From: an archaeon
GTDB taxonomy: Archaea; Iainarchaeota; Iainarchaeia; Iainarchaeales; CSSED10-239
DNA: 8,003 bases
Reading direction: 5' to 3'
Assembly: GCA_041677685.1 (NCBI GenBank)
Contig: JBAYPN010000028.1
Span: 1-8,003 of the forward strand
Position 1 is the first letter of the stretch. Each line of letters starts with the position of its first letter. A program made the position numbers and the translations under genes. The notes beneath the pieces were generated by a model that made no database searches, was not told the origin of the DNA, and saw only the letters and a list, made by a program, of their open reading frames with translations. Positions 1-7,352 of this stretch are shown one piece after another.

Positions 1-710
1 AAAAAGCAAAAGAAAATGCCGAAACAAATTTAAAAAATTCAAAAGAAATATTTGAAAGTTATTTGAATGATGTCTTTGAAAAAATTAGAAAAAATAACTC
101 TATTGTTAAATTTGGTAGTGTTTGTAATTTTGTAAGAGGCCCTTTTGGGGGTAGTTTAAAAAAATCTTATTTTGTGCCTGTTGGTTTTGCTGTTTATGAG
201 CAACAACATGCAATTAAAAATCAATTTTCAAAAATAAGATATTTTATTACTGAAAATAAATTTGAAGAGATGAAAAGATTTGAATTAAAATCAGGAGATC
301 TAATTATGAGTTGTTCTGGAACAATGGGTAAAATTGCTATTGTTCCTAATAATATTAAGAAAGGAATTATTAATCAAGCTTTATTAAAATTAACTCCTAA
401 AAATATATTAAATATAAATTATTTAAAACATTGGATGGAAAGTAATGATTTTCAGAATGAATTAATAAAGCTTTCTAAAGGTGCTGCAATTAAAAATGTA
501 GCATCAGTAAAAATTTTAAAAGAAATTAAATTGCCACTTCCTGAACTAAAAAAGCAAGAAGAAATTATTACTATAATTAATAATTTATACATTAAAACTA
601 AAAAATTAGAAGAAATATATAATAAAAAATTAAAATCTTTAGAAGAATTAAAAAACTCTATTTTAGAAAAGGCTTTTAAAGGAGAATTAACAAAAGATAT
701 TTATGAATGA
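1..710 (+). CDS. hsdS: Type I restriction-modification specificity subunit HsdS, 3' portion (5' end lies upstream of the window)
   Basis: The frame (codon phase from nt 3) is open from the window edge (KAKENAETNLKNSKEIFESYLNDVFEK...), so the TTG at 63 in the ORF track is probably internal. The translation shows an HsdS target-recognition-domain pattern (FGSVCNFVRGPFGG ... SGDLIMSCSGTMGK ... INQALLKL ... GAAIKNV). It is followed by the conserved C-terminal helix (LPLPELKKQEEI ... LEELKNSILEKAFKGEL). The TGA stop at 708-710 overlaps the hsdR start (ATGAATGA). Confidence 0.85.
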   Translation, partial: KAKENAETNLKNSKEIFESYLNDVFEKIRKNNSIVKFGSVCNFVRGPFGGSLKKSYFVPVGFAVYEQQHAIKNQFSKIRYFITENKFEEMKRFELKSGDLIMSCSGTMGKIAIVPNNIKKGIINQALLKLTPKNILNINYLKHWMESNDFQNELIKLSKGAAIKNVASVKILKEIKLPLPELKKQEEIITIINNLYIKTKKLEEIYNKKLKSLEELKNSILEKAFKGELTKDIYE

Positions 711-2994
711 AGCAGAAACAAGAGCCGAACTAATAGACCCTAAATTAAAAGATAGTGGTTGGGGTATTGTAGAAGGCACAAAGATACTTAGAGAACATAA
801 TATTACTAAAGGTAAATTACAAACAGGTATCGGTAGAGCAAAACCTTTAATAGCAGATTATATTTTAACATATAATGGAAAAAAATTAGCAGTTATTGAA
901 GCAAAATCTGTTGAAAAAGAAGTTGGAGAAGGTGTTGCTCAAGCAAAAGAATATGCTAATAAATTACATTTAGATTATACTTATTCAACTAACGGAAAAG
1001 AGATATACCAAATATGTATGAAAACAGGAGAAGAAAAACTAATTAAAAATTATCCCTCTCCTCAAGAATTATGGAATAATATTTTTGATATTAAAAATAA
1101 TTGGAAAAATAACTTTACAAAAGTTCCAAATGGTGGAAATTATCAACCTTACTTTTATCAAGAAATTGCAATTAATAAAACATTAGATGCAATTGCAGAA
1201 GATAAAAATAGAATATTATTAACTTTAGCAACAGGAACTGGAAAAACATTTATTGCTTTTCAAATAGCTTGGAAATTATTTTATAGTAGATGGAATTTAA
1301 AAAAAGATCAATCAAGAAGACCAAGAATACTATTTTTAGCAGATAGAAATGTATTAGCAGATCAAGCATTTAATTCTTTTTCTTCTTTTCCAGAAGATGC
1401 ACTTGTAAGAATTAGACCTGATGAAATCAAAAAGAAAGGATTTGTACCTACAAACGGAAGTATATTTTTTACAATATTTCAAACTTTTATGTGTGGTCCT
1501 AATGATTCTCCTTATTTTGGAGAATACCCAAAAGATTATTTTGATTTAGTTATTGTTGATGAATGTCATAGAGGTGGGGCAAATGATGAAAGTAATTGGA
1601 GAGCTATTTTAGAATATTTTTCTCCAGCAGTGCAAATAGGATTAACTGCAACACCAAAAAGAAAAGATAATATAGATACATATAGATATTTTGGAGAACC
1701 TGTATATATTTATTCTTTAAAAGAAGGAATAAATGATGGTTTTTTAACACCTTTTAAAGTAAGAAAGATAAATACAACTTTAGATGAATACACTTATACT
1801 TCAGATGATGAAATTATTGAAGGTGAAGTAGAAGAAGGTAAAATATATGTTGAAACTGATTTTAATAGAATAATAGAAATTAAAGAAAGAGAATCAATAA
1901 GAGTTGATATTTTATTATCTGAAATTGATCAAAAACAAAAAACAATTGTTTTTTGTGCAACACAAGATCATGCATTAGCTATAAGAGATTTAATTAATCA
2001 AAAGAAAGAAAGTAATAATCCAAATTATTGTGTTAGAGTTACAGCAAATGATGGTAAATTAGGCGATCAATATTTAGAAGACTTTAAAGATAATGAAAAA
2101 AATATACCTACTATCTTAACCACATCTCAGAAGTTGTCTACTGGGGTTGATGCTAGAAATATAAGAAATATTGTTTTAATGAGACCAATAAATTCAATTA
2201 TTGAATTTAAACAAATTGTTGGTAGAGGTACAAGATTATATGAAGGTAAGGAGTTTTTTACAATATATGATTTTGTAGATGCCTATAAACATTTTAATGA
2301 TCCTGAATGGGATGGAGAACCTTTAGAACCAGAAACAATAGATACTTCAGAAGGTTCTGTTTTAAAGAGTCCTAAGAAAAAAATTTGTTTAGAAATTGAT
2401 GATGACAAACCAAAAAAAATAAAATTAAAAATTAAACTAAAAGATGGAAAAGAAAGAGAAATTCAACATATGGCACAAACAAGCTATTATGATTCAAGTG
2501 GAAAACCTATCTCTATAGAAGAGTTTTTACAAAAAATATATGGAAAATTACCTTCTTTCTATAAAAATGAAGAAGAATTAAGAGAGATTTGGTCAAATCC
2601 AATTACTAGAAAATCATTTTTAGAAAAATTATCTAATGCTGGATATGATTTAAATAAATTAAAAGTTTTACAAGAGTTAATTAATGCAAAAAATAGTGAT
2701 TTATTAGATGTTTTAGAATATTTTTCTTTTGCAATAACACCAATTACTAGAGAACAAAGGGTTGCTAAAGCACAATCAAGAATTTTTAGTTCATTAGATT
2801 TTAATCAAAGAGAATTTTTAGATTTCGTATTATCTAAATATATAGAAGTTGGAATTGAAGAGTTAGATCAAGATAAACTACCTGATTTATTAAAGATTAA
2901 GTATTATGCTATAAAAGATGCTGTTAATTCTTTAGGTGGAGTAAATAAAATTAAAGATACGTTTATTAATTTTCAAAAGCATTTATATTTGTGA
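703..2994 (+). CDS. hsdR: Type I restriction enzyme R subunit HsdR (EcoAI/EcoEI-like architecture: N-terminal PD-(D/E)xK nuclease, SF2 helicase/translocase, EcoEI_R_C-like tail)
   Basis: The N-terminus is AETRAELIDPKLKDSGWG with nuclease residues D52 (ADY, nt 856-858) and E66-A-K68 (VIEAK, nt 898-906). Helicase motifs are present: I ATGTGKT (nt 1231-1248), II VIVDECHRG (DECH nt 1558-1569), III GLTATPKR (nt 1645-1656), STGVDARNIRNIVLMRP, and VI QIVGRGTR (nt 2212-2235). The C-terminal segment (REIWSNPITRKSFLEKL ... LDVLEYFSFAITPITREQRV ... REFLDFVLSKYIEVGIEELD) matches my memory of the EcoEI R-protein C-terminal domain. At 763 aa, it overlaps hsdS by 8 nt. Confidence 0.93.
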   Translation: MNEAETRAELIDPKLKDSGWGIVEGTKILREHNITKGKLQTGIGRAKPLIADYILTYNGKKLAVIEAKSVEKEVGEGVAQAKEYANKLHLDYTYSTNGKEIYQICMKTGEEKLIKNYPSPQELWNNIFDIKNNWKNNFTKVPNGGNYQPYFYQEIAINKTLDAIAEDKNRILLTLATGTGKTFIAFQIAWKLFYSRWNLKKDQSRRPRILFLADRNVLADQAFNSFSSFPEDALVRIRPDEIKKKGFVPTNGSIFFTIFQTFMCGPNDSPYFGEYPKDYFDLVIVDECHRGGANDESNWRAILEYFSPAVQIGLTATPKRKDNIDTYRYFGEPVYIYSLKEGINDGFLTPFKVRKINTTLDEYTYTSDDEIIEGEVEEGKIYVETDFNRIIEIKERESIRVDILLSEIDQKQKTIVFCATQDHALAIRDLINQKKESNNPNYCVRVTANDGKLGDQYLEDFKDNEKNIPTILTTSQKLSTGVDARNIRNIVLMRPINSIIEFKQIVGRGTRLYEGKEFFTIYDFVDAYKHFNDPEWDGEPLEPETIDTSEGSVLKSPKKKICLEIDDDKPKKIKLKIKLKDGKEREIQHMAQTSYYDSSGKPISIEEFLQKIYGKLPSFYKNEEELREIWSNPITRKSFLEKLSNAGYDLNKLKVLQELINAKNSDLLDVLEYFSFAITPITREQRVAKAQSRIFSSLDFNQREFLDFVLSKYIEVGIEELDQDKLPDLLKIKYYAIKDAVNSLGGVNKIKDTFINFQKHLYL

Positions 2995-3033
2995 TTTTTT
3001 AAAAAATTATTATTAGGATGTTAAAGAATATAT

Positions 3034-4242
3034 ATGACTGATAATATATATAAAATTAATCCGAATAGGTTAAATTATTTAATTAAGCAATATAATTTAA
3101 CTGAAAACGATTTGTTAGATAAGTTAAACATCACTTCTAGTGGTAAGTATAGAAAGAGAAACATTATTACTAAAGATATTTTTACAAAAATACTAGAAGG
3201 TACAATTAATGTTAGTTTAGATTATCTTAAAAGATTTGATTCTATTTTTGAAAAAGGATTAACATGGTATATTACTACTAGAAATATCCCTTTTAATAAA
3301 AATAACAGTATTTTTTTTAGAAAAGATAAATTTAATGCAGAAATGGATTTAGAAACTAAAAAGAAAATTGATTTTTTTGAACAAAAAAAGTTTGAAATAT
3401 CTTATCTAAGTAATCTTGTAGATTATAATTTAGAAAGGAAGATTGAAAGATATAATTTAAAAGATAACCCTTATGTAATTTCTAAAAAAATACATTCTAA
3501 TTTTGAAAAATTAAACTTAAAGGTTAATAAAAATCAAGATAAAGATAGATATTTTCTAGAATGGTTAATTAGAGTTATAGAAAGTCATAATGTTTTTGTT
3601 TTTGAATTTATTGAAAATCATAATGTTAAAAATCCTGTTAATTTTAGTGGTTTCTTTTTAAAACCAAATTTTATTGTTTTAAAAAGGCAAAAACAGTTAA
3701 GAAGAGAGATTTTTACACTATTACATGAGTTTGCACATTATTTATTAGATTGTGAAGATATAGATAATGATTTAGATCATTCTAAACCTAATACTGATGT
3801 TGAAAATTGGTGTAATAATTTTGCATATTGTTTTTTAGAAAAAGATTCTTTTTCAGAATTTGAAAGAGTTAATTTTGTTAAAAATAATTCTAATTTGAAA
3901 AATTTTGTAAATAATTTACATAATAAAACTTATTTAAGTTATAAAGCAATATATACAAGATTAAAAATAGAAAATAAAATTACAGATAAAGATTACGAGC
4001 ATGCTTTAGATGAAATTCAAAAAAGTATGGATACCAAAAAAGAAAAAGCCAAAAGGGATAGAGAATTATTAAAAGAACAAGGTAAAATTGTTGGTTTTGG
4101 AAAACCTAAAGCAATTAGATCTAATTTATTTGCTAGTATATTAAAAGAAAACTATTTTAGTGGAAATGTAGATGAAAATAGAATTTGTTCTAGTTTAAAT
4201 TTAAAAGGAAGGGATCAATTTGACAAATTTATCTACTCCTAA
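3034..4242 (+). CDS. ImmA/IrrE-family (COG2856, Peptidase_M78-like) Zn-metallopeptidase with HTH-like N-terminal region
   Basis: HEFAH sits at nt 3724-3738 (H231-E232-x-x-H235). About 25 residues later comes DVENWCNNFAYCFLEK, completing the HExxH...E..(A/C)NxFA..FL signature of ImmA/IrrE peptidases. The N-terminus (NRLNYLIKQYNLTENDLLDKLNI) looks like an Xre-type helix-turn-helix. A possible weak SD (AGGA) lies about 15 nt upstream of the ATG. The 3' end overlaps the next gene by 23 nt. Confidence 0.8.
   Translation: MTDNIYKINPNRLNYLIKQYNLTENDLLDKLNITSSGKYRKRNIITKDIFTKILEGTINVSLDYLKRFDSIFEKGLTWYITTRNIPFNKNNSIFFRKDKFNAEMDLETKKKIDFFEQKKFEISYLSNLVDYNLERKIERYNLKDNPYVISKKIHSNFEKLNLKVNKNQDKDRYFLEWLIRVIESHNVFVFEFIENHNVKNPVNFSGFFLKPNFIVLKRQKQLRREIFTLLHEFAHYLLDCEDIDNDLDHSKPNTDVENWCNNFAYCFLEKDSFSEFERVNFVKNNSNLKNFVNNLHNKTYLSYKAIYTRLKIENKITDKDYEHALDEIQKSMDTKKEKAKRDRELLKEQGKIVGFGKPKAIRSNLFASILKENYFSGNVDENRICSSLNLKGRDQFDKFIYS
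4207..4213 (+). promoter_or_regulatory. Shine-Dalgarno-like site for the DUF4411 gene, embedded in the peptidase coding region
   Basis: GGAAGGG lies 6 nt upstream of TTG 4220. It is one of the few G-rich strings in this AT-rich stretch. Confidence 0.5.
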
Positions 4243-4798
4243 AGTTATTATTGATACTAATAGTATTTCTAACTTTTTTAAATATTATTATTTCTGTGAA
4301 AATAAATATAAAAAAGAAGAATCTAAATTATTTGTAGATTTATGTAATTTTTTTGTTAATGAAATAAATAATGATAATATCATTGTAATTGATAAAGTTC
4401 ATGATGAGATAAAAAATAATTGGGGGTATAAAGATTTCATATACCCTAAAATTAAAAATAAAATATTTAAAACAGAATATCTGTTTCTTTCAGAAATTAC
4501 AGAATTAAGTAAAAATGTTATTGAGAAAAATAAAAAAAAACATTCCCCTGAAGTAATAGAAGCAGAAATTAACAAATTTGAAAATAAATATGCAGATTTA
4601 TATTTAATTGCTTATTCTATGAAAAATAAAGGCACTATATTAATTACTGATGAAACTAGTAATGAAAACCATAATAATAAGTTATTTCCTAAAATACCTA
4701 ATTTGTGTAAAGAATATAATGTTAAATGGGGTAATATTAGTTACTTATTGTTTAATATTTATGGTTCAAGATTAAAGTTTTCATTAAAAATAGATTAA
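4220..4798 (+). CDS. DUF4411-family protein (PIN-like fold, putative nuclease/toxin component)
   Basis: The N-terminal strand KVIIDTNSISNFF, the IIVIDKVHDEI segment and the C-terminal ADLYLIAYSMKNKGTILITDETS ... KIPNLCKEYNVKW match the DUF4411 pattern as I remember it (xxLDxNVFI ... ID.V.DEL ... ADPxLIAxA...VVTxE...KIPDVC). It starts at TTG 4220, preceded by GGAAGGG (4207-4213) with a 6-nt spacer, and lies inside the 3' end of the peptidase gene. Confidence 0.8.
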   Translation: MTNLSTPKVIIDTNSISNFFKYYYFCENKYKKEESKLFVDLCNFFVNEINNDNIIVIDKVHDEIKNNWGYKDFIYPKIKNKIFKTEYLFLSEITELSKNVIEKNKKKHSPEVIEAEINKFENKYADLYLIAYSMKNKGTILITDETSNENHNNKLFPKIPNLCKEYNVKWGNISYLLFNIYGSRLKFSLKID

Positions 4799-4814
4799 AT
4801 CAAATTAAAATACA

Positions 4815-4846
4815 CTTTTTATCTAGTCTTTTTATGTACTTTTTAT
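4815..4846 (+). repeat. Three direct copies of CTTTTTAT in the intergenic region upstream of the small RHH-like ORF
   Basis: CTTTTTAT occurs at 4815-4822, 4828-4835 and 4839-4846, spaced 13 and 11 nt apart (roughly one helical turn). No GC-rich hairpin accompanies the T-runs. Confidence 0.3.
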
Positions 4847-4894
4847 TTTAATTAAATATTAACTGTTTTAAATCTAATAACCTATAAATTATAT

Positions 4895-5110
4895 ATGGCT
4901 AGACCTAAGAAACTTGAGAAAAACAAGAAGATTTTTGTTCCAATTACCCTGGATAAAAATATATATTTTTACTTAAAAAAGAGAGATGTTAAGATATCTA
5001 CATACATTAACAAAATGCTCAAAGTCGCTTTAAACAAAGGATCTAGAGAGAATGACGATTTTTATGACCCTAACCTTTTAACCTTGGTAAGTTTAAGTAT
5101 ATTAAATTGA
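4895..5110 (+). CDS. Small hypothetical protein, possibly ribbon-helix-helix (CopG/Arc-like) DNA-binding
   Basis: This 71-aa ORF has a basic N-terminus (MARPKKLEKNKK). A beta-strand-like segment (IFVPITLDKNIYFYL) and then a helix-like one (ISTYINKMLKVAL) give the usual RHH layout. There is no SD. TATAAA lies 6 nt upstream of the ATG, so the mRNA may be leaderless. The C-terminal third is low-information and coding status is uncertain. Confidence 0.35.
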   Translation: MARPKKLEKNKKIFVPITLDKNIYFYLKKRDVKISTYINKMLKVALNKGSRENDDFYDPNLLTLVSLSILN

Positions 5111-5135
5111 TTTATAAATATATATCTAATATAAA
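5107..5135 (+). promoter_or_regulatory. Candidate sigma70-type promoter for the 5154-onward operon
   Basis: TTGATT (5107-5112), a 17-nt spacer, then TATAAA (5130-5135). The predicted start site would fall at or within the SD, and such hexamers arise easily by chance at this AT content. Confidence 0.2.
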
Positions 5136-5141
5136 TATATA
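5114..5141 (+). repeat. 11-nt direct repeat ATAAATATATA x2 upstream of the methyltransferase gene
   Basis: Exact copies lie at 5114-5124 and 5131-5141 (17-nt period), overlapping the candidate -10 element and abutting the SD. Confidence 0.3.
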
Positions 5142-5145
5142 GAGG
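5141..5145 (+). promoter_or_regulatory. Shine-Dalgarno-like site for the methyltransferase gene
   Basis: AGAGG lies 8 nt upstream of GTG 5154. Confidence 0.5.
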
Positions 5146-5153
5146 TTATGTAA

Positions 5154-5864
5154 GTGAATAAATTATATAAATATTATCATCAAAGTTATGATGAATTATT
5201 TAATTATAAAAATTATAATTTTGAATCTGATCTGATTTTAAAAAATATATCTGTTAATAAAAACAATTCGATTTTATCTTTAGGTTGTGGTACAGATAAA
5301 CATGGTTTTTCATTAAGAAAAAAAATAAATTATAATAAATATATAGGAATTGACATTAATAAAGAAATGTTTTCTAATATAAATAGAGATAAAAAAACAA
5401 ACTATTATTGCTATAATATTATTAATTTTCCGAAAAATTTTGTTTTAAAAAATAAAAATACTTTTGATGTTATTTTTGCATATGGAGGGGTTTTTAATTA
5501 CATCTCTTTAAAAGATCTTAAAAAGGTTTTAAACATTTGTAAGTTATTATTGACTAAAAATGGAATATTAGTTTTTGACATTCCATATAATTTTGAAAAT
5601 TATTCTAATAATTATATAGATATTCAAAATTCAAATAATGTAATTAAATTATCTTTATCTAGTAAACAAAATAATATTGGTTTCTATCAAACTATTTTTT
5701 TTGAAAAAACAAAAACAAATAAAATTATAAAAATAGATTATGATTCTGAAGAAATACATTTACATAAGCAAAAAGAATTAGATAATTTAGGATTTAAATT
5801 TAAAAAATATGATTCAAAAGGATTAACTAAGAAACCTTTTGTTTATTATATATATAAAAAGTGA
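5154..5864 (+). CDS. Class I SAM-dependent methyltransferase (substrate unknown)
   Basis: Motif I is ILSLGCGTDKHG (G44 at nt 5283). It is followed by IGIDINKEMF (acidic loop, motif II) and FDVIFAYGGVFNYISLKDLKKVLNICKLLLTKNGILVFDI (motifs III-V of the Rossmann MTase fold). The start is GTG 5154, the first codon after an in-frame TAA, with SD AGAGG (5141-5145) 8 nt upstream. Confidence 0.8.
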   Translation: MNKLYKYYHQSYDELFNYKNYNFESDLILKNISVNKNNSILSLGCGTDKHGFSLRKKINYNKYIGIDINKEMFSNINRDKKTNYYCYNIINFPKNFVLKNKNTFDVIFAYGGVFNYISLKDLKKVLNICKLLLTKNGILVFDIPYNFENYSNNYIDIQNSNNVIKLSLSSKQNNIGFYQTIFFEKTKTNKIIKIDYDSEEIHLHKQKELDNLGFKFKKYDSKGLTKKPFVYYIYKK

Positions 5865-6439
5865 TTAGTATGATTTTTTTATTTGATAATATTACTGATA
5901 AAATTGATTTTGCATCTATATTAATTAGTGTTTTTGAATCCCCGAAAGATCATAAATTTATTTTTTGTGGTAAAGAAAAAGAATTTTATCAGAGTTTAAT
6001 AAAAACTCAAAAAGTAAAATCTTATCTATTTACATATTATCCAAATTTAAGCGTAGACTTTGAGAAAATAATTAATAAAAAAATATTTTTTAGACCAGAT
6101 TATGAAAAAACAATTAATTTTCTTAAAAAGAAAAATTATAATTTATATGGTACAACTCCAAGTAAACAATCTAACAGTGTTTTTGAATTAAAGTTAAAAG
6201 AAAAGAGTGTGTTTGTTTTTGGTTCTGAAAATGGATTGTCTAAGAAAAAATTAGAATTATTGACTATGTTAATACATTATCCATTAAATAAAGCTAGTTT
6301 TTTAAAAATTAGAAATATATTTCCAATTGTTCATGGAATAATTTCTGAAAAAAATTTTGCATTAAAAAAAAATAAAATGGTTGACAGATCAATAAAACCC
6401 AAACCAAAAAATACTGTTAAAAGATTTAAAAGACGATAA
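5861..6439 (+). CDS. Divergent SPOUT (SpoU/TrmH-like) methyltransferase-fold protein with basic C-terminal tail
   Basis: IFLFDNITDKIDFASILISVFES aligns by eye with SpoU motif 1 (vLenv.DP.NlGaIlRtA.afG). VFVFGSENGLSKKKLELL (nt 6212-6265) matches motif 2 (lvfG.E..Gls). LIHYPLNKASFLKIRNIFPIVHGIISE matches motif 3 (i.IPm.g...SLNvs.Aa.i..yE). The start is either GTG 5861 (a GTGA overlap with the upstream stop) or ATG 5870. The tail is KKNKMVDRSIKPKPKNTVKRFKRR. Confidence 0.62.
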   Translation: MISMIFLFDNITDKIDFASILISVFESPKDHKFIFCGKEKEFYQSLIKTQKVKSYLFTYYPNLSVDFEKIINKKIFFRPDYEKTINFLKKKNYNLYGTTPSKQSNSVFELKLKEKSVFVFGSENGLSKKKLELLTMLIHYPLNKASFLKIRNIFPIVHGIISEKNFALKKNKMVDRSIKPKPKNTVKRFKRR

Positions 6440-6441
6440 TA

Positions 6442-7008
6442 ATGATTTCTTCTAAAATATACAAAATAGTTATTATTGGTGGGGGTCCTGCTGCCATGGG
6501 TGCTATTAAATATTATGATGGACCTAAAGATGATTTATTACTAATTTCTAATAATGAGATTGGTTTTTTTGCATATAATTCAATAAAAACACATAAAACT
6601 ACAGATGGGTTATTTTTTGCAGATAATAAATCTCCAGATTATTTGATAAAAGAATATAAAAAGTTATTATTAGAAAAAAAAACAATTATATTAAAAGATT
6701 TTGTTAAAAAAATAAATAAACTAGATAATTATTTTGAAATTATTTGTTCTAAAAAAATTTATACCGAATTTGTAATTGTATGTACTGGAATGAATAGTAA
6801 GATATTAAAAGATTTTAATAAATTTAAAAATGTATATAATTTAGCAGGCACCTTTAATGATTTAAAAAATAAGAATTGTGTTGTAATTGGTGGTCGAAAT
6901 TCAGGAACAAGTGCCGCTATATATTTGTCTAAAATTTCTAAAAAAGTATATTTATTAGAAAAAAATAAAGAATTACCTTGTAAAAAAAATATTTTGAGAG
7001 ATTGTTAG
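6442..7008 (+). CDS. Thioredoxin-reductase-fold FAD/NAD(P) oxidoreductase, N-terminal fragment (frame-disrupted; lacks CxxC)
   Basis: It has an FAD dinucleotide motif (KIVIIGGGPAAMGA), a TGMNSK segment, and a second Rossmann motif (CVVIGGRNSGTSAAIYLSKISKKVYLLEK) that is collinear with E. coli TrxB [30 protein letters not shown]. The frame ends at TAG 7006-7008 shortly after an A8 tract (6982-6989). The homology continues in another frame. Confidence 0.8.
   Translation: MISSKIYKIVIIGGGPAAMGAIKYYDGPKDDLLLISNNEIGFFAYNSIKTHKTTDGLFFADNKSPDYLIKEYKKLLLEKKTIILKDFVKKINKLDNYFEIICSKKIYTEFVIVCTGMNSKILKDFNKFKNVYNLAGTFNDLKNKNCVVIGGRNSGTSAAIYLSKISKKVYLLEKNKELPCKKNILRDC
6982..6989 (+). other. A8 homopolymer at the frame-change point of the TrxR-fold gene
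   Basis: The sequence reads TGT AAAAAAAA TAT TTT GAG. Homology to TrxB runs in frame 1 up to the tract and in frame 3 after it. An A9 tract would give one continuous ORF of about 303 aa. Confidence 0.7.
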
Positions 7009-7352
7009 ATTGTAAAAATGCAGATTATTTTTGTGATGTTAAAGAAATTAAAGTATTAGAAAAAAAAGGATCCAAAATTTCTAAAATTAAATTTATTTTT
7101 AACAATAATTTTAAAGAAGTTAAAGTAGATTTAATTTTTGTATATATAGGTTTAATTCCAAATTCGAATATAGTAAAATCAATTTGCAAATTAGATTCTA
7201 ATGATTATATATTAGTTGATTCTAAAAATGAAACCTCTTGTAATAATTTATTTGCGGCGGGCGATGTTACTGGGAAAATACCTCAAATTATAAGTTGTCA
7301 TGGAGATGGATCAAATGCAATCTATTGGATACAAAAAAGAATTAAAATATAA
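7002..7352 (+). CDS. Thioredoxin-reductase-fold oxidoreductase, C-terminal fragment (continues 6442-7008 after a -1/+2 frame change)
   Basis: This frame is open from 6984 (KKYFERLLDCKNADYF...), and the TTG at 7002 is only the ORF-track start. (K)YFERLLDCKN aligns with TrxB EKILIKRLMDK. DLIFVYIGLIPNSNIV aligns with GLFVAIGHSPNTAIF. NLFAAGDVTGKIPQIISCHGDGSNAIYWIQKRI aligns with [34 protein letters not shown]. Confidence 0.8.
   Translation: MLDCKNADYFCDVKEIKVLEKKGSKISKIKFIFNNNFKEVKVDLIFVYIGLIPNSNIVKSICKLDSNDYILVDSKNETSCNNLFAAGDVTGKIPQIISCHGDGSNAIYWIQKRIKI

Follow-up and report, generated by a model that had tools for sequence, protein, structure and literature searches.

Two overlapping genes on an 8,003-nucleotide stretch of archaeal DNA (contig JBAYPN010000028.1 of assembly GCA_041677685.1, GTDB lineage Iainarchaeota) are the subject of this analysis. 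We refer to the whole stretch, 8 kb with ~20% G+C and with all of its genes on the forward strand, as the window; the carrier of the pair is probably a DPANN archaeon. The upstream gene encodes a multidomain zinc peptidase, and the downstream gene, which begins inside the end of the first, encodes a PIN-like protein of the DUF4411 family (Table 1). An earlier note had put the pair forward as a candidate protease-gated toxin or abortive-infection module, and the open reading frames (ORFs), the 23-nt overlap, the TTG start, the HEFAH motif and the other motifs that it quoted all lie where it placed them. We propose that the two genes form a type II toxin-antitoxin (TA) module of the VapBC52 kind, belonging to the broader RosmerTA-like class of ImmA-protease antitoxins, and we put the probability of this reading, which draws on sequence comparison, at roughly 0.78.

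Both family assignments made in the earlier note were borne out by Pfam. The first protein matches Peptidase_M78 over residues 210–268 (31.4 bits, E = 1.8e-7, cut-off 22), and the element ENWCNNFAYCFL forms its residues 257–268. The peptidase belongs to a large family of full-length homologues of ~400 residues (130 matches), and H231, E232, H235, E241, E257, W259 and C260 are invariant among 61 of them. The second protein matches DUF4411 over residues 11–173 (57 bits, E = 2.6e-15, cut-off 23.5), with the segments KVIIDTNS, VIDKVHDEI, ADLYLIAYS, ILITDETS and KIPNLCKEYNV all within its frame. Its detectable relatives are fewer than those of the peptidase, 65 representatives at E up to 0.001, and in 44 homologues the acidic residues D12, E63, D126 and E145 are invariant together with K158, P160 and C163; D58 is kept in 41 of the 44. 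AlphaFold2 gave confident models of the peptidase and the toxin, with predicted local distance difference test (pLDDT) values of 88.4 and 91.8, respectively. The top Foldseek matches were IrrE, PprI and PrpR for the former and the PIN proteins PRORP, FitB and VapC for the latter, every one at E >0.001, in a PDB copy that held entries to April 2026 without 9VZY. A search of a viral structure library returned nothing useful, and NCBIfam holds no model for either protein.

Table 1 Positions in the window of the gene pair, its parts and the adjoining features. R-M, restriction-modification; RHH, ribbon-helix-helix; XRE, repressor family.
Feature	Position	Strand	Description
Type I R-M operon end	1–2994	+	hsdS (cut by window edge, to 710) and hsdR (703–2994), EcoAI/type IB class; 39-nt spacer to the pair
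Block travelling together	3028–5097	+	Pair and 71-residue RHH-like ORF (4895–5110); 2.07 kb
Putative antitoxin gene	3034–4242	+	402 residues, ATG start; multidomain ImmA/IrrE (M78) zinc peptidase, VapB52 homologue, RmrA-like
N-terminal five-helix domain	3034–3273	+	Residues 1–80, divergent XRE-like; VapB52 equivalent is the main toxin-binding part
F94-F95-R96-K97	3313–3324	+	Linker counterpart of the VapB52 'FR motif'; probable self-cleavage site there
HExxH zinc-binding/catalytic motif, HEFAH	3724–3738	+	H231, E232, H235; align to VapB52 H216, E217, H220
E241-D242-I243-D244 loop	3754–3765	+	D244 at the position of the VapB52 'cysteine switch' C229
E257-N-W259-C260	3802–3813	+	Third zinc ligand and conserved Cys; E257 on VapB52 E245, C260 on C248
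C-terminal helical domain	4114–4239	+	Residues 361–402; counterpart of the VapB52 domain occluding the toxin active site
Gene junction	4207–4242	+	GGAAGGG at 4207–4213, TTG at 4220, 23-nt overlap with antitoxin gene end
Putative toxin gene	4220–4798	+	192 residues, TTG start; DUF4411 PIN-like nuclease, VapC52 homologue
Predicted toxin catalytic residues	D12 4253–4255; D58 4391–4393; E63 4406–4408; D126 4595–4597; E145 4652–4654	+	

Searching the PDB sequences with the profiles of both families led to two chains of a single entry, 9VZY: chain A, named 'HTH cro/C1-type domain-containing protein' (393 residues; E = 4.6e-6), and chain D, named 'DUF4411 family protein' (E = 0.016). This entry and 9VZZ are structures of VapBC52 (Rv2515c/Rv2514c) of Mycobacterium tuberculosis, published in June 2026 (Singh et al., Nucleic Acids Research; PMC13273310). 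For the comparison, the VapB52 and VapC52 sequences were rebuilt from database fragments and one Mycobacterium contig, and the VapB52 clade was sampled from 80 metagenomic loci, where a DUF4411 gene lies downstream at 71 of the 72 loci with room for one. Profile-to-profile alignment with hhalign matched the peptidase family to the VapB52 family at 98.9% probability (E = 3.1e-17, 343 columns), pairing residues 45–399 of the window protein with VapB52 26–382, and the toxin family to the VapC52 family at 97.7% probability (E = 1.9e-12, 137 columns). The two systems share the gene order, antitoxin first and DUF4411 toxin immediately after. The toxins are homologous over the whole PIN domain with shared acidic residues, D12 falling on VapC52 D6, and over the aligned part of the antitoxins the likeness extends to the second half of the N-terminal domain, an FR-type linker, the HExxH-plus-Glu zinc site and the Cys that follows the Glu, as well as a helix-turn-helix (HTH)-like motif and a C-terminal domain after the zinc site.

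The mycobacterial work provides crystal structures, shows toxicity and its neutralisation, identifies tRNAs as targets and describes a phage phenotype (PMC13273310). One VapB52 binds each VapC52 dimer, its N-terminal domain being required for binding and its C-terminal domain occluding the toxin active site. H216, H220 and E245 bind zinc in the crystal, and in the resting state C229 caps the metal. Single-stranded DNA (ssDNA) induces an HExxH-dependent self-cleavage that removes the N-terminal domain, and the probable site is the FR motif, which lies in the linker joining the N-terminal domain to the peptidase domain. Freed VapC52 cuts tRNAs in the anticodon or variable loop and is inactivated by mutation of D6, and its overexpression renders M. 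smegmatis resistant to phage D29 (PMC13273310). By analogy with this studied homologue, the earlier proposal that a signal-activated protease gates a PIN-like nuclease may well apply to the window pair. The accompanying statement that the pairing had no experimentally defined function is superseded, as the pairing was predicted computationally in 2017 (PMC5499597) and 2023 (PMC10440598) and VapBC52 was characterised in 2026 (PMC13273310).

Residue by residue, the window antitoxin appears to be laid out as an XRE-derived N-terminal helical domain, an FFRK linker, an IrrE/CapP-type zinc peptidase with an HTH-like motif, and a C-terminal helical domain. In the model the N-terminal domain consists of helices at residues 10–19, 24–31, 47–55, 62–72 and 76–80. 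The earlier note had called this end of the protein HTH-like. That description is borne out in part: in the full-length alignment the second half of the domain falls on the XRE-type HTH of VapB52 (residues 45–80 on 26–61, including E55-G56 on the E35-x-G37 region), but a Pfam HTH match was seen in 0 of 35 members of the family. VapB52 itself matches HTH_3 and HTH_31. A profile of the N-terminal 135 residues gave no PDB match and, used alone, no alignment to the VapB52 N-terminus; XRE domains were among the Foldseek matches of the peptidase model, at non-significant E-values. From these comparisons the domain is best described as divergent XRE-like, that is, probably XRE-derived and without a recognisable HTH sequence signature.

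The linker holds a conserved motif. The stretch S92-I-F94-F95-R96-K97 is invariant or nearly so in the 61 homologues (F94 61/61, F95 58/61, R96 61/61, K97 60/61), and F94-F95-R96 fall on VapB52 F75-R76-R77 to within one residue; in the VapB52 clade F75 is present in 34 of 36 members and R76 in all 36. Past the zinc site, where the three ligands coincide with those of VapB52 (Table 1), the C-terminal residues 361–399 align to VapB52 345–382 and are modelled as helices at 364–375, 381–388 and 393–401. The loop between the HExxH motif and the third ligand has the invariant consensus E-E-[IV]-[DE] in the window clade. Among the 61 homologues its last position, 244, carries Asp (41) or Glu (20) and never Cys, whereas the equivalent C229 position is Cys in 35 of the 36 VapB52-clade members. 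Judged from this substitution, an acidic side chain (D/E244) may cap the zinc in place of the cysteine switch; the peptidase model is poorly defined at residues 247–250, just past D244 (pLDDT <50).

The tight coupling of the two genes described in the earlier note is a feature of the family. At 74 loci the junction falls between −61 and +3 nt, 40 of them having the modal value of −4, and the toxin gene is probably translationally coupled to the antitoxin gene. In the window, TTG is the sole standard toxin start, because no ATG or GTG occurs in the sequence between it and D12. A GGAAGGG lies 6 nt ahead of the TTG, and the junction sequence is the same in three relatives (L001, L093 and L094; 87–99% identical overall). 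The earlier note had seen in this heptamer a clear Shine-Dalgarno sequence. The heptamer is indeed present, but it sits inside the upstream coding sequence of a probable DPANN archaeon, and its role as a Shine-Dalgarno sequence is only putative. Nor does the suggested sub-stoichiometric expression of the toxin follow from the homologue, because the solved VapBC52 complex contains one antitoxin per two toxins. A 58-residue minus-strand ORF (4399–4575) inside the toxin gene was treated as spurious.

Oligo-T runs are typical archaeal termination signals. Three CTTTTTAT-type runs follow the toxin stop codon (4799–4860), and a T6 run follows the stop codon of the upstream hsdR gene (2995–3000), so the pair may form a transcription unit of its own, as judged from these runs. 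In the window we found no Rfam match, no tRNA gene and no intrinsic terminators, and promoter-like sites occurred at chance level; the repeats within 2900–5200 resemble AT-rich chance matches.

We surveyed the genomic surroundings of the pair in a set with one genome per species, anchored on the peptidase alignment. Species-representative genomes hold at least 422 relatives of the window clade, of which the best 80 of 422 were analysed. A DUF4411 gene lies downstream of the peptidase gene on the same strand at 76 of the 78 loci with room for one, upholding the synteny that the earlier note had expected, and among peptidase homologues 31–99% identical to the window protein the next gene encodes DUF4411 in 7/7 distinct contigs. 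The module occurs in DPANN archaea (Woesearchaeota, Pacearchaeota, Ainarchaeum), Patescibacteria, Cloacimonadota and many Bacteroidota, cultured strains among them. Purifying selection acts on both genes, as estimated from the ratio of nonsynonymous to synonymous substitution rates against relatives 87% identical (0.25–0.28 for the peptidase, 0.26–0.29 for the toxin). At seven loci the pair is disrupted. The DUF4411 gene is truncated at four loci (L013, L023, L048 and L070) and absent at two (L061 and L068), each time beside an intact peptidase gene, and at a seventh (L058) a 290-residue minus-strand ORF (5281–6153) is inserted between the DUF4411 gene and the peptidase gene, which is again intact. 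A toxin-antitoxin pair would be expected to decay in this way.

No constant partner accompanies the two genes. Among the 132 genes directly flanking the pair at the 78 loci, no Pfam family is represented more than three times; defence genes (ResIII, GmrSD, Eco57I/MmeI, Panacea antitoxins) form a minority, and housekeeping genes make up the remainder. The module had no match in phage genomes, was present in 2 of 72,556 plasmid records, once inside a small defence cluster, and occurred in viral contigs at 7 loci. By the measure of these neighbourhoods the pair is a conserved, autonomous two-gene module. One Woesearchaeota chromosome (L004, 10802–11242 on the minus strand; L075) holds two or more additional DUF4411 genes, one paired with a 451-residue peptidase, so a single small genome can harbour the module in several copies.

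The arrangement found here had been anticipated by comparative genomics. Matelska et al. (2017; PMC5499597) listed DUF4411.1 genes downstream of fused HTH-DUF955 (COG2856) genes as predicted three-component TA systems; this is exactly the arrangement in the window, and it was found in bacteria and in 13 archaeal proteins, but as a computational prediction only, with no mechanism. In 2023, node D25 of the NetFlax network linked an ImmA/Rosmer antitoxin with PIN-like toxin partners (PMC10440598). RosmerTA (RmrT/RmrA; Millman et al. 2022) is a validated phage defence with this antitoxin type, and its validated RmrT toxins have other folds, for example membrane-depolarising ones (PMC10440598). The window pair shares with RosmerTA an antitoxin that joins an HTH domain (in the window protein a divergent, probably XRE-derived one) to an ImmA-type zinc peptidase, served by an exchangeable toxin. 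It differs in that the RmrT folds are other than DUF4411 and that the match of RmrA to the window antitoxin is weak: five PADLOC RmrA models match the peptidase, the best at 26.3 bits (E = 7.5e-7, residues 45–348 on 36–323 of 383).

The peptidase also matches the PADLOC capP model (25.9 bits). CapP/CapH of the cyclic oligonucleotide-based antiphage signalling system (CBASS) and IrrE/DdrO of Deinococcus share with the window protein the peptidase fold and the zinc site, and follow the same logic, in which a protease is switched on by a DNA-damage or ssDNA signal. They differ in that a separate repressor is cleaved and transcription is controlled, whereas VapB52, and by homology the window antitoxin, carries substrate and protease in one chain and has as its output the release of a bound toxin. 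The window contains no separate XRE-family repressor gene beside the peptidase of the kind found in ImmA/ImmR or IrrE/DdrO, and none recurs as a neighbour among the 132 flanking genes.

If the window pair works as VapBC52 does, one antitoxin would at rest clamp a toxin dimer, with the N-terminal domain holding the toxin, the C-terminal domain covering its active site, and a loop residue on the zinc keeping the peptidase auto-inhibited. The peptidase would be opened by a signal of stress or infection (ssDNA in the case of VapB52 and CapP) and would then cut within its own linker, at the FR motif or close to it, with loss of the N-terminal domain. The PIN toxin thus freed would cleave tRNAs or other RNA and bring about cell arrest or an aborted infection. 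Toxicity, neutralisation, self-cleavage, the trigger and the RNA target are features that we infer for this pair by homology to VapBC52; near-full-length homology, the catalytic and zinc-binding residues, the order and coupling of the genes, purifying selection and the autonomy of the pair are properties of the sequences at hand.

Several observations weigh against so close an equation with VapBC52. Identity between the two sets of proteins is only 15–20% in the profile alignments. The first ~44 antitoxin residues do not align to VapB52, and together with the missing HTH match this makes DNA binding or autoregulation by the N-terminal domain doubtful. C229 is replaced by Asp or Glu in 61/61 members of the window clade, so the regulatory switch, and possibly the trigger, may differ. 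The window toxin is ~40 residues longer than VapC52. PADLOC would not call the pair Rosmerta, because no toxin model matches the DUF4411 protein at E up to 1. The resistance to phage D29 was obtained by overexpression of VapC52 and is weak evidence for a native defence role. The hosts differ as well, down to phylum and domain of life, VapBC52 being actinobacterial and the window clade belonging to DPANN archaea, Patescibacteria and Bacteroidota.

These differences could be taken further. A variant of the VapBC52 design is conceivable in which D/E244 caps the zinc with a carboxylate, the N-terminal domain serves as a clamp without binding DNA, the trigger is something other than ssDNA or thiol chemistry (for example a change in metal or pH, or a viral protein), and the module, in this genome, is wired to the end of the type I R-M operon to act as a back-up defence. 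We regard this full combination as unlikely.

The R-M element of that combination derives from the surroundings of the window copy, which lies downstream of the 3' end of a type I R-M operon. The encoded proteins match Pfam Methylase_S, ResIII, EcoEI_R_C and HSDR_N, as well as NF046051 at 797 bits. The hsdR gene is complete. The 215-residue hsdS ORF covers just the latter half of its gene, which the window edge truncates, because the frame is open back to base 3, and hsdM presumably lies further upstream. The R-M genes have a G+C content of 0.25–0.28, compared with 0.19–0.21 for the pair. A block comprising the pair and a 71-residue ORF behind it is 87% identical to L093 and L094 over exactly 3028–5097, in three different flanking contexts (blastn). 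Homology to L001, L093 and L094 starts exactly at 3028, 6 nt before the ATG, and ends at 5097 for two of the three. A leader of ~95 nt upstream of the pair is common to L001 (119–217), L093 (1395–1493) and L094 (944–1042) and has no counterpart in the window, where its place (2995–3033) is taken by the hsdR 3' end and 33 nt up to the breakpoint at 3028. Since the native leader persists in L001, 99.4% identical, the R-M neighbour must have arrived recently and in this genome specifically.

Downstream of the pair lie the 71-residue ORF, two methyltransferase genes and a thioredoxin-reductase-like gene. The 71-residue ORF gave weak CcdA/MazE-like (RHH) matches at E about 0.02. The lineage contains multiple copies of it, at 84–91% nucleotide identity (L001 6874–7167; L093 456–809, 3288–3611 and 7010–7132; L094 2908–3141), and it has no homologue beside the pair in other lineages. 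We rejected it as a general third component of the module on the ground that its homologues are confined to the window's own lineage. All of its other copies run into a sequence resembling a tRNA 3' end, GGTCGCGGGTTCAATTCCCGCCAGAAGC (L001 7076–7103; L093 658–685 and 3553–3580; L094 3110–3137), with no complete tRNA at these places; the window lacks the fragment, homology stopping at 5097. In L093 a Phage_integr_3 integrase gene directly follows the tRNA-like fragment, which, from its sequence, looks like an attachment-site remnant of an integrative element. Other toxin-type genes (HicA, NYN, Fic, PemK) lie within a few kb of the pair in L001 (7409–8861) and L093 (5248–6951), which suggests a TA-rich variable region in this lineage. 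The thioredoxin-reductase-like gene (6442–7352) is split into overlapping ORFs, 6442–7008 and 7002–7352. At a poly-A run (~6981–6989) the window has one A fewer than L001, where the gene is intact and encodes 303 residues; the split reflects an error of sequencing or assembly, or else a genuine frameshift.

This setting bears on three other explanations of the pair. It might be a plain addiction module that stabilises a mobile block by post-segregational killing and plays no part in virus defence, the peptidase serving only to make the antitoxin labile. The movement of the 2.07-kb block between contexts is in keeping with that, as are the tRNA 3' fragment at which the block ends in relatives, the integrase gene adjoining it in L093 and the HicA, PemK and Fic genes that neighbour the pair in L001 and L093, and the evidence for a native defence role of VapBC52 is weak. 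However, the module is nearly absent from plasmids and rare in viral contigs, at many loci the neighbours are housekeeping genes and no element genes are close by, and RosmerTA, with the same antitoxin type, protects against phages. We consider addiction alone rather improbable, and it would alter the biological role of the pair, not its molecular mechanism. A separate possibility is that the type I R-M operon has acquired the pair as a restriction back-up, in the manner of PrrC with EcoprrI, so that the toxin is freed when a virus inhibits the restriction enzyme. The replacement of the native leader by the hsdR 3' end, the 39-nt spacer and the common strand would suit such a capture; at three further loci type I R-M genes are found no more than 4 kb away, and one plasmid copy adjoins a restriction endonuclease gene. 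Against it stand the small share of loci with type I genes nearby (3 of 78), the scarcity of any recurrent neighbour family (none more than three times among the 132 flanking genes), and L001, which has the native leader and no hsdR in 211 nt upstream. Moreover, the T6 run after the hsdR stop could end the hsdR transcript, and VapBC52 works without an R-M partner. R-M linkage as a property of the module, which the earlier note had proposed to count, fails at the level of the family; with 3 of 78 loci and L001 having the native leader in place of hsdR, we rejected a conserved, PrrC-like embedding, and hold a restriction back-up at this one locus to be very unlikely.

In the well-known pairs ImmA/ImmR and IrrE/DdrO, the peptidase cleaves a separate repressor. 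By that precedent the window peptidase could be an anti-repressor that cleaves, for example, the 71-residue RHH protein to switch an element on, with DUF4411 as an accessory nuclease and not a toxin, and the RHH ORF is indeed co-conserved with the pair in the four closest relatives. Outside this narrow lineage, however, the ORF has no homologue beside the pair, the peptidase shares its chain with N- and C-terminal counterparts of the toxin-binding domains of VapB52, and the peptidase/DUF4411 pair is conserved without a third gene across the 78 loci. Of the explanations considered, this one seems to us the most remote. A self-cleaving antitoxin and PIN toxin of the VapBC52 kind remains the reading that we prefer.

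The pairing of these two families was already known; what is new here is a distant archaeal member, and the substitution of an acid for the cysteine is the one feature that merits follow-up. On the reading preferred here, the annotation of the pair can read as a protease antitoxin that cleaves itself and a toxin of the PIN tRNase type, and not as an 'ImmA/IrrE peptidase' and a 'DUF4411' protein. The VapBC52 design would then not be a mycobacterial oddity, as it would span DPANN archaea, Patescibacteria, Cloacimonadota and Bacteroidota, and the change from a cysteine to an acidic switch would offer a concrete comparison for the off/on control of protease sensors.

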